From: Promethearchaeota archaeon
Lineage (GTDB): Archaea > Asgardarchaeota > Lokiarchaeia > Sigyniarchaeales > SOKP01
Length of the DNA stretch: 64,000 nucleotides
NCBI GenBank assembly: GCA_019058445.1
Contig: JAHPZA010000010.1
Span: 576,001-640,000, forward strand
Reading direction: 5' to 3'
Under the pieces are notes generated by a model, which worked only from the letters and a program-made list of their open reading frames with translations, made no database searches and had not been told where the DNA came from. A program made the translations under genes and the position numbers. Positions 37,429 to 49,249 of this stretch are shown in pieces; the stretch's first letter is position 1; every line of letters starts with the position of its first letter.

Positions 37429-37479
37429 GCTCTAAATTTTAATAAAAATAGTTAATCAAAAAAAAAAGAAAAAAAAGAT

Positions 37480-37737
37480 TTAGCCTATTTCTACATCCAT
37501 TTTCTTACGCTCTTCAAGGAGATCGTCAACTACAGATGGATCGGCTAAGGTTGTGACATTTCCAATATCAGTACCAGATGCGATAGCTTTTAAAATTCGA
37601 CGCATAATTTTACCACTTCTGGTTTTTGGAAGGGCATCTGCAAATTGAACGACATCTGGTTGAAAGACTGGTCCGATCTCTTGTCGAAAATGCATTTTAA
37701 TGTCGTGTTTCAAATCTACAAATTTTTCAATTCTCAT
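37480..37737 (-). pseudogene. acs: Duplicated 3'-terminal fragment of acetyl-CoA synthetase
   Basis: Last ~65 aa (EIGPVFQPD...[14 protein letters not shown]...MDVEIG*) identical to the C-terminus of the 45051 gene; no upstream acs sequence. Confidence 0.85.
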
Positions 37738-37831
37738 AAATATTATTATAACTCTGTTTATTTTGTTTTAATCCATAATTTTTTATAACCCTAACTCAAT
37801 ATATTTAAATTAAAGATTATTAAGCAAAACT

Positions 37832-44484: not shown

Positions 44485-45021
44485 ATGCCAATAGTTAGTT
44501 CAATACCAATCGCGATTTTTTATTATATTTTACTGTTTTTAGGCACTATAGTCTGCATAATTGTGTTATTTATGGGAAATGGAGATATAACAAATATTTT
44601 TGGTTATTTTTTTATCTCAGGAACTGGATTAGTTTGTCATCTTATATTAGTAGGGGATCTTTTTGATAACCAGGATATAGATTATCCCTATAGAACTTAC
44701 ATTTGCATAATTTTAATTGGAGTTTTCTTTTATTTGGTCGCAATTTTTTATGGTTTGTTTATAATTCTACTTCTCTTTTATCAGGTTTCAAAAAGTACTT
44801 TTGCATTTTTCAATTTTATATCCTTTGCAATATTATGGATTCTTGTCATAAGTGTTTCTTTATATAGCATCTTTATATATTCAGTTAAAGAAGAAGAAAA
44901 ATTAAGAGACAGACTAATTGAGAAAAAAAGGAGAGCCAGACAAAAAAAGAAAGAACTACGAGATAAAATGGAAGAGTATCTACAATGGAAAGCTAGGGAA
45001 AAACCAGACCAACAAAGTTAA
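44485..45021 (+). CDS. Four-TM membrane protein with charged C-terminal tail
   Basis: Hydrophobic segments then a K/R/E-rich helix. Confidence 0.6.
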   Translation: MPIVSSIPIAIFYYILLFLGTIVCIIVLFMGNGDITNIFGYFFISGTGLVCHLILVGDLFDNQDIDYPYRTYICIILIGVFFYLVAIFYGLFIILLLFYQVSKSTFAFFNFISFAILWILVISVSLYSIFIYSVKEEEKLRDRLIEKKRRARQKKKELRDKMEEYLQWKAREKPDQQS

Positions 45022-45050
45022 TTAAAAAAAAAAGTAAAAATTGATTTAAT

Positions 45051-47185
45051 TTAGCCTATTTCAACATCCATCTTCTTACGCTCTTCAAGGAGATCGTCAA
45101 CTACAGATGGATCGGCTAAGGTTGTGACATTTCCAATATCAGTTCCAGATGCGATAGCTTTTAAAATTCGACGCATGATTTTACCGCTTCTGGTTTTTGG
45201 GAGAGCATCGGCAAATTGAACGACATCAGGTTGAAATACTGGTCCTATTTCTTTTCGAACATGATTTTTAATATCTCTCTTCAACTCAACTGATTTATCA
45301 ACGCCTTGCATTAAAGTAACAAAACTCCAAATGGCTTGACCCTTAATTTTGTGGGGAAAAGGAGCTACTGCAGCTTCAGCTACCTTCGGATGACTCACTA
45401 TTGCTGATTCGACTTCCATGGTTCCAATTCGGTGGCCTGAAACCTTAATCACATCATCTAATCTGCCTAAAATCCAATAATAACCATCTTCGTCTCGACG
45501 TGCTCCATCTCCAGTATAGTAACATCCCGGATACCTTTCGAGATAAGTCGATTTGAATCGTTCGGTGTCACCCCACACATCTCTTAACATACCAGGCCAT
45601 GGTTGAGCCATACAAAAATATCCTCCTTCATGGGCTTCAGTTACCTCGTCTCCTTCTAAATCAAAAATTATCGGTTTGATTCCTAAGAATGGTAAGCAAC
45701 ATGAACCTGGTTTTGTGGGTGTAGCGGTCGCTATCGGCGTCATTATAAAGCCCCCCGTTTCTGTTAGCTAATGAGTGCGAATTGCAATCATCTTTTGCCA
45801 GTATGTATCAACGATGGGGCATTTTTCCTTTCCTACAATTCTGTGATACCACGTCCATGCCTCAGGGTTTTTCCCAAACTACGCATAAGTTGCATAATTT
45901 ATTGGTTCCCCTACAGTACCTAAGACGCGGATAGAGCTGAGATCATGTTTATTCACAGGCTCATCACCATATCGCATTAACGCTCTTATTGCCGTCGGAG
46001 CTGTATAAAACTGTGTAACCTTGTGTCGCTCAACAATATCCCAAAAGCGGTCCACATTTCCCCCATATGAAGAAATTTCAATTTTTCCTAAAGAATTAGG
46101 ATTTTTAATTTGTATGACTGGGTATGTAGGCACGCTTTCAAACATAAGTGTTGTAGCGCCATTTGCTAATGGTCCATATACAATATAACTATGTCCGGTA
46201 ATCCAACCTATATTTCAGCTAAGCTAAGCGAGTTGCTTTAACTTTCTGCTGTACAATACCAGACATCGCCATCCTTATAATTAAACACCACTCTATGTGT
46301 AAATGAAGTGTAAAGGATATAACCTGCTGTGGTATGTTTCACCCCTTTAGGTTTACCAGTAGTTCCGCTTGTATATAGGATGAATAAGGTGTCTTCAGAA
46401 TCCATTTCTTCACAATCACAATCCTCATTCATACCATCAATGAAATCATGATACCAGATATCCTTGTTGGTGCTTGGAACTTCATTTCCCGTACGCTTTA
46501 CTATTATAACATGCTCTATGGTAGGTACGTCATCGATAATTTGAGCGACATCTGCCATTTTTGGATAGGTTTTTCCCGCTCTAAAGGTCTCATCGCTAGT
46601 AAACAACAATCTCGAATCAGAATCCTCAATCCTATCTTTTACTGCTTCTTTTGAAAATCCGCCAAATACAATAGAATGAATTATTCCAAGTCGAGCGCAG
46701 GCTAACATAATAATTGCCAATTCAGGCAACATAGGGAGCCAAATGGTGACCCTATCTCCTTTTTTGAGCCCAAATTTTTTCATGCCGTTGGCAACTTTAC
46801 ACACTTCTTTTTTTAGCTCGCTAAATGTGAATTTTCTCACTTCTCCGGGTTCATCAGCCTCCCAGATTAGAGCGGTATGGTCGCCTTTCCCTTTTTTGAT
46901 ATGGCGATCGATACAATTATAGCATACGTTTAATTTTCCGCCAACAAACCATTTTCCGGGAAATAAGTCCGTTTTTTCCCAAACTTTATCGTAAGGTTTG
47001 AACCAGTCTAAAGATTTAGCTTGCTCGCCCCAAAACCCCTCCATATCATCAATACTTTGCTGCCACAGTTTTTTATATTCTTCGAAAGACATCCCGGTCT
47101 TTGCATAATCAGGATTTAAATTAACCGGATTGAAAACACGTGTTTCTGTAAGAATCGATTCCATTTTTTTATCTTCTTCTGACAT
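45051..47185 (-). CDS. acs: Acetyl-CoA synthetase (AMP-forming), 5 exons / 4 putative BHB introns; exons 46246-47185, 46118-46213, 45901-46057, 45794-45870, 45051-45763; spliced product 660 aa
   Basis: [68 protein letters not shown]. Exon sum is 1983 nt (661 codons) with no internal stops after splicing. Confidence 0.9.
45764..45793 (-). other. acs intron 4, 30 nt, BHB-type, contains in-frame UAG
   Basis: mRNA: CU GGCA AA|A GAUGA...UCAUU AGCU AA|C AG; removal gives UGG CAA ACA GAA (WQTETGG). Confidence 0.85.
45871..45900 (-). other. acs intron 3, 30 nt, BHB-type, contains in-frame UAG
   Basis: mRNA: ACCA AU|A AAUUAUGCA-ACUUA-UGCGUAGUU UGGG AA|A; removal gives GEPINPEAW. Confidence 0.85.
46058..46117 (-). 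other. acs intron 2, 60 nt, relaxed BHB-type, in-frame with no stop
   Basis: mRNA: ACCC AG|U CAUA...UAUG GGGG AA|A UGUGG; removal gives CCA GAU GUG GAC CGC (YPDVDRFW). Confidence 0.75.
46214..46245 (-). other. acs intron 1, 32 nt, BHB-type
   Basis: mRNA: UGUA CAGC AG|A ...hairpin... GCUG AA|A UAUA; removal gives GCA GAU AUA GGU UGG (ADIGW). Confidence 0.85.
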
Positions 47186-47191
47186 AAATTA

Positions 47192-47231
47192 TCACCAAAT
47201 TTGATACTTGAATAGAATATTTTTTTATATA
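47192..47231 (-). promoter_or_regulatory. Putative SD (GGTGA) and TATA-like box upstream of acs
   Basis: Minus strand reads TATATAAAA about 40 nt upstream and GGTGA 6 nt before the ATG. Confidence 0.4.
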
Positions 47232-47341
47232 GAAATTTTCTTAATCACATGAATTCAATAACAGTTTTAAACATTTTATATAAATTTTATAAATAATTAT
47301 ATACTTAGAGAACGAAATTATTTTGTACTTGAGGGGTTAAA

Positions 47342-49249
47342 ATGGAAAGAATTGATTTATTAGATAAAGACTGGAGAGAGAAATGGAAAAATAAGGAAAT
47401 AACACCCAAAGAGGCAATAGGGAAGATTATTCCTGGAAATCGGGTATTTATTGATACTGGGTGTAGTGAACCGCAGGCATTAACAGATGAATTAATCAAA
47501 CAATCTGAAAAATTGATAGATACTGAGTTAATTCACTTTCTCACAATTTATCCTCAAAAATATTTCAAAGATAAGGCAGAAGATTTGTTTAGGCATAATG
47601 CGTTTTTTATAGGGAAAGCTCTCAGAGAGGAAATAAATAAAGGACAAGCAGATTATACACCTATAATAGCCAGTGAAATTCCTTCATTATTTCTTTCAGG
47701 TCGTAAATATTGTGATGTTGCCTTAATTCAAGTAACTCCCCCGGATCGATATGGTTTTTGCTCATTTGGAGTTAATGTTGATGTTGCTAAGCCAATTGCC
47801 CAATCAGCGTACATTACTATTGCCGAGATAAATCCCCAAATGCCCAGAACATTGGGAAATAGCTTCATCCACATGAAAGAAATTGATCATTTTGTGTATA
47901 ACGACACACCTCTCATAGAATTCCAGTTTAAGGAAAAGAATGAGATTATTGAGAGAATAGGAAAAAATGTAGCAGGTATCATTCAAAATAAATCAACAAT
48001 CCATATTGGTAATGGATATATTCCGAATGCTTGTTTAAATTACTTATTTGAAAAAAGAGATCTTGGAATGCACTCTCATTTTATAACTGATAATATCATA
48101 CATTTAATAGAAAACACTGTTTTAACATGTAGGAAAAAGAACTTCCATCCTGAAAAGATTATTACTAGCTACGCGTTAGGAACAAAAAAGCTATTTGATT
48201 TTATCAATAATAATCCTTACATTGAGTTTTATCCAACAGATTACATCTGCAATCCCCGATATATCGCAATGAATAAAAACATGGTTTCAATAAATCAAGC
48301 ATTACAAATCGATTTAACAGGCCAAGTAAATACTTCAACAAAAGGATACAAATTTCATACTGGAATTGGAGATACTGTGGATTTTATGAGAGGGGCAGCG
48401 CTTTCTAAGGGTGGAAAGCCAATAATTGTTTTACCTTCAACAAGAAAAGAGGGAACGGAATCAACCATAGTTCCCCATTTAGACGAGGGAGCGGGAATAA
48501 TTCTTTCTCGAGCAGATATTCACTATGTTGTAACCGAATGGGGAGTAGCATATCTTCATGGAAGGACAATTCGAGAAAGAGCCTTAGAATTAATATCTAT
48601 TGCCCATCCTGATTTTAGACAGTCTTTATTAGATCAAGCGAAAATATTGAACTACATTTACTCTGATCAATTATTACCCTGCGATGAGGAAGGAAATATT
48701 TGTATTTATCCAAAACACTATGAGACCTATTTTGTGACTAGAGCTGAAGAAAAAGTTATTGTACGCCCGGTAAGGACAACTGACGAACCTCTCTTGAAAA
48801 AATTGTATTATTCTTTAGATGAAAGAGATAGATATTTGAGGTTCTTTGAGGTGAAAAAGGAATTTACACATTCAAAAACACAACATGAGGTTAATATTGA
48901 TTATGAGAATATCTTTTCAATTGGAGCTTTTGTAGGAGATATTACAAATCAGGAAATGGTGGGAAACGCATCTTATTACTATAATCCCCGAAATAATATG
49001 GCAGAATACAGCTTTTTAGTTCGAGAAGATTATAGAGGTAAAGGAGTGGGCTCTTTTCTCTATCACCACTTAATCATCATAGCAAAAGAAAGGGGAATAA
49101 AAGGATTTTATGGAACTATTCACATCCAAAATAAACAGACGGTACAGATCATAAGGAAAGGAGGGTACACAAAAATTACACCTCCAGAAGCAGGAGAAAA
49201 AGAATTATTTTATGAAGTTTTTTTTGATAAAGACAATTCAAATGAATAA
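47342..49249 (+). CDS. Acetyl-CoA hydrolase/CoA-transferase fused to a C-terminal GNAT N-acetyltransferase
   Basis: DVALIQV.PPD..G.CS.G, EIN..MPRT.G, ID.TGQ, G.GD..DF.RGA..S.GG, VVTEWG.A.L.G; GNAT: YLRFF, AEYSFLV..DYRGKGVG. Confidence 0.9.
   Translation: MERIDLLDKDWREKWKNKEITPKEAIGKIIPGNRVFIDTGCSEPQALTDELIKQSEKLIDTELIHFLTIYPQKYFKDKAEDLFRHNAFFIGKALREEINKGQADYTPIIASEIPSLFLSGRKYCDVALIQVTPPDRYGFCSFGVNVDVAKPIAQSAYITIAEINPQMPRTLGNSFIHMKEIDHFVYNDTPLIEFQFKEKNEIIERIGKNVAGIIQNKSTIHIGNGYIPNACLNYLFEKRDLGMHSHFITDNIIHLIENTVLTCRKKNFHPEKIITSYALGTKKLFDFINNNPYIEFYPTDYICNPRYIAMNKNMVSINQALQIDLTGQVNTSTKGYKFHTGIGDTVDFMRGAALSKGGKPIIVLPSTRKEGTESTIVPHLDEGAGIILSRADIHYVVTEWGVAYLHGRTIRERALELISIAHPDFRQSLLDQAKILNYIYSDQLLPCDEEGNICIYPKHYETYFVTRAEEKVIVRPVRTTDEPLLKKLYYSLDERDRYLRFFEVKKEFTHSKTQHEVNIDYENIFSIGAFVGDITNQEMVGNASYYYNPRNNMAEYSFLVREDYRGKGVGSFLYHHLIIIAKERGIKGFYGTIHIQNKQTVQIIRKGGYTKITPPEAGEKELFYEVFFDKDNSNE

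Follow-up and report, generated by a model that had tools for sequence, protein, structure and literature searches.

Four short inserts in the acetyl-CoA synthetase gene of an Asgard archaeon are very likely tRNA-type introns

Introduction

In 2002, Watanabe and coworkers reportedly described an intron of the bulge-helix-bulge (BHB) type in the pre-mRNA of crenarchaeal cbf5. Splicing of a BHB intron from pre-mRNA was confirmed for this pseudouridine synthase gene of Crenarchaeota and for no other gene (Yokobori 2009, PMC2738675), and a 2020 paper on the substrates of the endonuclease EndA counted one mRNA intron, that of cbf5, plus its own case in a 5′ untranslated region (UTR) (PMC7714728). 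Here we analyzed a stretch of 64,000 nt (the window) from a Promethearchaeota archaeon (assembly GCA_019058445.1, contig JAHPZA010000010.1, positions 576,001 to 640,000), in which acs, the gene for AMP-forming acetyl-CoA synthetase, is interrupted by four short inserts. An earlier reading of the window (the original prediction) had taken these inserts for BHB introns and had held that mRNA introns of this type are known mainly from crenarchaeal cbf5, in agreement with the two papers above.

How does acs compare with the described systems? The cbf5 intron is likewise a short intron with a BHB fold within a coding sequence, gained and lost among lineages, and it is spliced by a tRNA endonuclease of the hetero-oligomeric type. 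Unlike acs, cbf5 carries one intron per gene, is an RNA modification gene of thermophilic Crenarchaeota, and has had its splicing shown experimentally; acs is a metabolic gene of an Asgard archaeon, its four introns (up to seven in relatives) include a stereotyped 30-nt class, and their splicing is inferred. The BHB intron of Haloferax volcanii HVO_1309 is also an mRNA substrate of the archaeal splicing endonuclease, but it is a single intron, lies in the 5′ UTR, and interrupts no codons (PMC7714728). The multiple introns of Asgard tRNA genes come from the same lineage group, share the motif and also occur several per gene, at noncanonical positions and with repeated gains (PMC11291895; bioRxiv 10.64898/2026.10.13.758758); these papers cover tRNA genes only, and the word mRNA is absent from the second. 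In acs, by contrast, the host is a protein-coding sequence, an unspliced copy of which would yield a truncated protein.

In eukaryotes, the HAC1/XBP1 mRNAs are spliced without the spliceosome by the endonuclease IRE1 and a tRNA ligase or RtcB, which remove a very short intron. The likeness to what we propose for acs is that RNA stem-loops are recognized by an endonuclease, a tRNA-type ligase joins the ends, and removal alters the frame or the product; the differences are another endonuclease and motif and a single regulated intron per genome, linked to the stress response. Bypass elements, such as those of phage T4 gene 60 and the byp elements of Magnusiomyces mitochondria, are hairpin-forming inserts of tens of nucleotides in coding sequence that resemble gene breaks, as the acs inserts do. 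They differ in that they remain part of the mRNA and depend on take-off and landing codons that match, whereas the acs inserts split codons and have BHB borders. Our literature search found no report of BHB introns in Asgard coding sequences; it misses most subscription journals, and this absence is not proof. What is new in acs is that several of these putative introns lie in one coding sequence and that their sites are shared across lineages.

Results

The gene lies on the minus strand at positions 45051..47185 of the window and consists of five exons and four inserts, for brevity called introns 1 to 4. Exon 1 (46246..47185, 940 nt) ends in codon phase 1 and is followed by intron 1 (46214..46245, 32 nt), which contains TAA and shifts the frame. 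Exon 2 (46118..46213, 96 nt) is followed by intron 2 (46058..46117, 60 nt), which is open in frame, and exon 3 (45901..46057, 157 nt) and exon 4 (45794..45870, 77 nt) are followed by introns 3 (45871..45900) and 4 (45764..45793), each of 30 nt and with an in-frame TAG. Exon 5 (45051..45763, 713 nt including the stop codon) keeps the PKTRSGK lysine motif of Acs. Read without removal of the inserts, the frame that starts at 47185 stops after 315 codons and the remainder lies in pieces. Once the exons are joined, at GCAG|ATATAGG, CCAG|ATGTGG, CCAAT|AAACCC, and GCAAA|CAGAA, the resulting 1983 nt form an open reading frame (ORF) of 660 codons plus a stop, with zero further lesions. The original prediction had given these positions, junctions, and counts correctly, along with three stop-containing inserts, one of them also frame-shifting, in an otherwise intact gene with a 660-aa ORF.

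The genome (G000) is a metagenome-assembled draft of 10 contigs and 4.6 Mb, with 31% G+C and a completeness of 92.6%. The NCBIfam acetate--CoA ligase model NF001208 was scored on the acs exon pieces separately rather than on the whole spliced protein, and it matched exon 1 over positions 4-306 (393 bits) and exon 5 over positions 424-647 (317 bits). The spliced product contains the motifs TADIGW, YPDVDRFW, GEPINPEAW, WQTETGG, and PKTRSGK, falls within the AMP-forming acetyl-CoA synthetase family (NF001208 / TIGR02188), and is 94.7% identical in amino acid sequence to the uninterrupted orthologue of a genome of the same genus (G002). The interrupted gene is the sole Acs-type gene of G000; its two parts scored 501 and 369 bits, compared to 173 bits for the next-best ligase. 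An Rfam search of positions 44800-47400 returned zero matches.

We then compared the inserts with the geometry of a BHB intron. In the register used, exon positions i-5..i-2 pair with intron positions j-5..j-2 to form the central helix, the bulges span i-1..i+1 and j-1..j+1, each strand is cut behind its second bulge nucleotide, and the inner helix begins at i+2/j-6; this rule was checked against the canonical tRNA intron at 37/38. All four acs introns have two 3-nt bulges around a 4-bp central helix, with introns 2 to 4 in a relaxed form: 4/4, 3/4, 3/4, and 3/4 central positions are paired in introns 1 to 4, and the inner helix directly adjoins the bulge. The original prediction had described this structure at each site, with up to one mismatch in the central helix, and its description fits. 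Intron 1 has the central helix CAGC/GCTG, bulges AGA and AAA, and an outer exon-exon helix of 5 bp; its architecture is that of the 30-nt class but with a 10-bp stem. In intron 2, the central helix ACCC/GGGG has three of four pairs (all four in the 42-nt intron that L036 has at this site), and the body of the insert folds into a long interrupted hairpin. Introns 3 (9-bp stem) and 4 (8 of 9 stem pairs) both have a 5-nt loop and follow one plan, in which 1 + 9-bp stem + 5-nt loop + 9 + 4 + 2 makes 30 nt.

The cuts defined by this geometry fall exactly where the Acs frame and motifs are restored, at all four acs sites, as had been predicted, and at 24/24 inserts when those of orthologous genes are counted. 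Protein alignment with insert-free orthologues independently sets the same borders. At sites where the border has no register ambiguity (intron 2, and site 4 in L039 and L133), only the BHB cut restores the frame.

To place the inserts among relatives, we compared ∼97 orthologous acs loci, some of which represent the same genome sampled twice. The closest loci belong to metagenome-assembled genomes (MAGs) of Promethearchaeota/Promethearchaeia, that is, Loki-type Asgard archaea. About 80 orthologues are insert-free, including that of G002, whose sequence closes exactly at the four borders; this bears out the alignment to intronless relatives that had been proposed as a check. Inserts were found in acs of 10 other genomes: all ten have one at site 4, four at site 3, two at site 1, and one at site 2. 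With three further sites, the total, G000 included, comes to 24 distinct inserts at 7 sites, spread over 11 genomes. Two relatives carry more inserts than G000, namely L036:3425-3948 with seven and L052:3425-3939 with six, of 30-42 nt. Both share sites 1, 3, and 4 with G000, and their intron sequences are unrelated to those of G000; L074, which lies closest to L052 in the acs tree, has the site-4 intron only. Where genomes share a site, their inserts often bear no sequence relationship to each other, and site 4 alone has 10 distinct sequences among the ten other genomes. A preference for the most conserved nucleotides was mixed, with sites 1 and 3 in the top decile and the others not, and three site positions are approximate. 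A metagenome scan for more acs orthologues yielded only 9 Loki-type loci, one of them with two inserts.

All 24 inserts have three or four of four central pairs and an adjacent stem in the same BHB register, and their removal leaves a stop-free acs frame in every insert-bearing genome. The mean number of pairs in the central and inner helices was 11.1 in the true register compared to 2.5 when the register was slid by 1-12 nt; the fit to the BHB register thus exceeds chance.

Could the inserts instead be kept in the mRNA, where the ribosome would either bypass them, as it does in T4 gene 60 and at the byp elements of yeast mitochondria, or translate them into additional peptide loops? Like bypass elements, most inserts form a hairpin and have a length divisible by three; 8/24 are open in frame, and at site 3 an AAT/AAC take-off and landing pair is formally possible. 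Matching codons are absent at sites 1, 2, and 4, however, and 13/24 inserts hold in-frame stops while 3/24 shift the frame, so that 16/24 stop or shift. Among the inserts that are multiples of three, 8/21 are open, which is about the chance expectation for sequence of 31% G+C; the inserts are therefore not under coding selection. Moreover, introns 1 and 2 each lie within a GAT codon (G|AT), and the conserved Asp residues of TADIGW and YPDVD are regained only by joining the RNA, since no contiguous codon supplies Asp. Because of these split codons and of the 16 stopping or shifting inserts, bypassing and translated loops both fail, and we judge retention of the inserts in the message very unlikely.

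Conservation of the proposed fold was apparent from compensatory changes at sites 3 and 4. At site 4 (9 distinct rows), 88.9% of cells were paired, compared to 30-47% with the 3′ partner slid; 6 stem pairs had changed on both sides, and 0/500 shuffles reached the covariation score. At site 3 (4 distinct rows), 90.4% were paired, compared to 21-44% slid, and double-sided changes occurred in 8/13 tested pairs, made up of 7/9 stem pairs and, in the central helix, one exon-intron pair. In this last pair, A-T is replaced by G-C, a synonymous exon change (CCA to CCG) being matched by T to C in the intron. The rows are related by descent, so the shuffle counts are not probabilities, and the slid controls and double-change counts are the stronger argument. 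The inner helix is thus present and covarying at sites 3 and 4, and the fold of the inserts is conserved by compensatory change while their sequence drifts.

These data also bear on the possibility that the inserts are removed from the RNA by machinery other than EndA and RtcB, or that they are tolerated hairpin elements, similar to repetitive extragenic palindromic (REP) sequences or miniature inverted-repeat transposable elements (MITEs), that spread at the DNA level. In favor of these readings, the 30-nt class is highly stereotyped, with its 9-bp stem and 5-nt loop, the central helices are imperfect, and a catalytic EndA gene was not found in the G000 assembly (see below). However, none of the four acs inserts has a further copy in G000, the best off-target matches being ≤17 nt, and inserts at the same site are unrelated between genomes. 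The exon-intron helix covaries, which a DNA hairpin element would not need, and the BHB cut rule is obeyed at 24/24 inserts. As for self-splicing introns, it is established that 30 nt is far too short. We consider this pair of explanations improbable: a repeated DNA hairpin element is unlikely, and removal at the RNA level by something other than EndA and RtcB is a possibility.

Because standard callers would report acs as fragments of 315, 88, and 230 aa, the gene might be taken for a decaying pseudogene that acquired four insertions. Comparison of the acs exons of G000 and G002 gave a pS of 0.67 (nearly saturated), a pN of 0.029, and a ratio of nonsynonymous to synonymous change (dN/dS) of ∼0.017. 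The original prediction had named an exon dN/dS near 1 as the mark of a pseudogene. With G003 as the outgroup, the branch of G000 (∼0.012) was no longer than that of G002 (∼0.017), showing that G000 is not accelerated. The acs exons are under strong purifying selection, and these selection data exclude a pseudogene. In addition, the 1983 nt are free of other lesions, G000 has no second acs, ten other genomes keep same-site inserts with compensatory changes and intact exons, and the divergent Pat-like neighbor is intact. We therefore regard decay as highly improbable.

Since G000 is a draft assembled from metagenome data (10 contigs), we also considered assembly or binning artefacts. A 28-kb contig at a depth of 26 covers positions 45147-47185, with all four inserts, at zero differences. 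Three additional runs from the same study provided short contigs that bridge intron 1 (X3 and X4) and intron 4 (X2), and orthologous inserts occur in MAGs of other studies. The insertions are thus real in the DNA, as originally supposed, with the support coming from contigs of four runs and not from raw reads, and the chance of an artefact is negligible. Among the contigs of these four runs, no insert-free DNA joint across the acs sites was found. A doubly spliced pattern (junctions 3 and 4 with the spacing of acs exon 4) was searched for in metagenome contigs and not found.

Is the machinery for tRNA-type splicing present? RtcB is present and intact in G000. A single EndA-family gene was found (L209:1501-2106 = G000:C9:770313-770918, plus strand). 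Aligned to Methanocaldococcus jannaschii EndA, its product has Phe and Ser at the positions of the catalytic Tyr and His, and because of these replacements it looks like a structural beta subunit. Genomes of the same genus have a beta-like gene and a second EndA with an intact Tyr/His/Lys triad (alpha), the latter in 9/9 of these genomes (e.g., G002 L216:1171-1770). Asgard archaea have an alpha+beta EndA, a type that has been linked to relaxed BHB recognition and pre-mRNA splicing (PMC5829648). One weak candidate for a second EndA in G000, at C3:126738, falls in genes for a methyltransferase-like and a Cys-rich protein and is not EndA.

ARAGORN found only 5 uninterrupted tRNA genes in the 4.6 Mb of G000, and 23 when one canonical intron was allowed. 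The majority of tRNA genes must thus carry interruptions that ARAGORN cannot model, and the small number of uninterrupted ones suggests that BHB splicing is heavily used in G000. These counts are consistent with the intron-rich tRNA sets described for some Asgard groups (PMC11291895; bioRxiv 10.64898/2026.10.13.758758).

We next asked whether inserts of this kind occur in other protein-coding genes of G000. A scan combining the BHB motif with restoration of an ORF yielded six further inserts of the 30-nt class that are individually convincing through the conserved motifs they restore. In the single gyrB gene, a 30-nt insert containing two TAA codons (L211:3445-3474 = G000:C9:608302-608331, minus strand) lies between GLEGV and RKRPAMYIG; its central helix is 4/4, its stem 8/9, and its loop 5 nt, and the hidden Markov model (HMM) match (positions 1-639) runs across both stops. 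An aEF-2-like gene (an EF-2 paralogue) has a 30-nt insert with an in-frame TAG upstream of EQERGITI (L114:3517-3546 = G000:C10:684116-684145, minus strand), which is a textbook BHB (9/9 stem, 4/4 central helix) and is likewise crossed by the HMM match. A second, uninterrupted aEF-2-like gene lies at C9:663619-665790, and the EF-2 case is weaker for it. In a Sir2 gene, a 30-nt insert follows ELHG (L227:1767-1796 = G000:C9:775863-775892, minus strand), and the HMM match spans two stops. The remaining three are 30-nt inserts in a ChlI/ChlD-type chelatase gene (G000:C9:269043-269072, within MNPEEGELRPQ), an alpha/beta hydrolase gene (C2:158336-158365, HPHPQ|FGGNMYNN), and a dehydrogenase-like gene (C6:563114-563143, Q|GHSGHG). 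A PF17863 search was uninformative on the chelatase insert, as the domain lies downstream of it.

Four acyl-CoA ligase paralogues contain 1-3 TAA codons inside otherwise continuous HMM matches (L124, G000:C6:861976-863748; L125, C6:220650-222302; C10:295477-296580; and C6:876338-877153). These stops probably reflect more inserts of the same kind, and one 29-nt candidate insert was located at C6:862249-862277 in one of these genes.

The frequency of such genes is harder to judge. The BHB motif alone, in the 30-nt architecture, had ∼6,250 matches in the genome and ∼5,100 in shuffled sequence; at 31% G+C it is too permissive, and it also fires several times within uninterrupted coding sequence, including the acs exons. 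When ORF restoration was added, with flanks of ≥80 codons, there were 10 matches compared to 5.4 expected; with flanks of ≥30 codons, there were 24, compared to 13.8 at random positions and 21 with mirrored geometry. The scan is thus unable to size the number of interrupted genes. Because its excess over controls is small, dozens or fewer seem more likely than hundreds. The original claim of routine tRNA-type mRNA splicing, for which a genome-wide BHB scan had been put forward as a check, is supported in a limited sense: at least six other genes, the single gyrB among them, carry an insert of the same kind, and such inserts in mRNA genes are not confined to acs.

Two other features of the window touch acs. 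On the minus strand at 37480-37737 lies an ORF of 85 aa that ends in 66 residues identical to the C terminus of Acs, including the lysine of PKTRSGK. The DNA is ∼93% identical over 272 aligned columns (37470-37740 versus 45040-45310), with only silent differences within the shared 66 residues, making this ORF a stand-alone partial copy of acs, 7.3 kb from the gene. A role as a decoy or regulator of Acs acetylation would be a guess. On the plus strand at 47342-49249, divergent from acs, an intact gene encodes a 635-aa protein with an N-terminal part resembling CoA-transferases and acetyl-CoA hydrolases, fused to a GNAT domain (Pat-like).

Discussion

We conclude that the four inserts are very likely archaeal BHB introns, that is, introns of the tRNA type, in the acs pre-mRNA, and that these cells very probably splice ordinary mRNAs with their tRNA-splicing enzymes. 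In the mechanism we propose, the last exon bases before each insert would pair in the pre-mRNA with the last bases of the insert to form the central helix of four positions, flanked by a 3-nt bulge on each strand, while the body of the insert would fold into a hairpin (9 bp and a 5-nt loop in the 30-nt class). EndA would cleave after the second nucleotide of each bulge, and RtcB would ligate the exons and probably circularize the excised piece. The 660-aa enzyme would be encoded only by mRNA freed of all four inserts. The sequences themselves show the layout and exact borders of the inserts, the covarying fold, purifying selection on the exons, precise gain or lack of inserts among relatives, and an RtcB gene; from there we infer cleavage by EndA, ligation by RtcB, and splicing ahead of translation.

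Several points weigh against this interpretation. Splicing of acs is deduced from DNA, as searches with the gene and with its central part listed no RNA run and hence no RNA junctions or excised circles. The open frame of intron 2 would in principle allow its translation. One nonstandard pair (A.G or A.A) occurs in each of three of the four central helices. In the strict register, the outer exon-exon helix has 5, 0, 0, and 2 bp in introns 1 to 4, leaving gaps at introns 2 and 3, where unconstrained folds gave shifted outer helices. Because of these nonstandard pairs and absent or shifted outer helices, the acs motifs are relaxed, noncanonical BHB motifs. In G000, intron 1 has a weak inner stem of 7/10 pairs (9-10/10 in two other genomes). 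The catalytic alpha EndA was not found in the 92.6% complete G000 assembly, in which tblastn with the alpha sequence of a relative recovered only the beta-like gene; we treat this, provisionally, as a gap in the assembly. Finally, the genome-wide excess of ORF-restoring motif matches (24 versus 13.8 and 21) is small.

How did these introns come to occupy the same positions? In three genomes, acs sites 1, 3, and 4 are occupied by introns of unrelated sequence that are absent from the closest relatives of these genomes. Tentatively, and with slightly more doubt than confidence, we suggest that stereotyped hairpin introns of ∼30 nt may be actively invading protein-coding genes of some Loki-type Asgard lineages, entering the same sites repeatedly in separate lineages. 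Shared sites with unrelated intron sequences would in any case offer a tractable system for studying the gain of BHB introns.

Gene callers would report genes such as these as fragments or pseudogenes, and metabolic reconstructions from Asgard MAGs would then list acs, gyrB, and others as missing or defective in error. If a metabolic gene in the closest archaeal relatives of eukaryotes requires four splicing events, then split protein genes and obligatory mRNA splicing are possible in a cell without a nucleus; this has a direct bearing on the long-standing problem of how cells keep ribosomes from translating unspliced messages. If the introns are indeed invading coding sequences, mRNA introns in these archaea would have a gain-and-loss dynamics of their own that affects housekeeping genes such as gyrB, and the cells would have to order splicing before translation without a nucleus.

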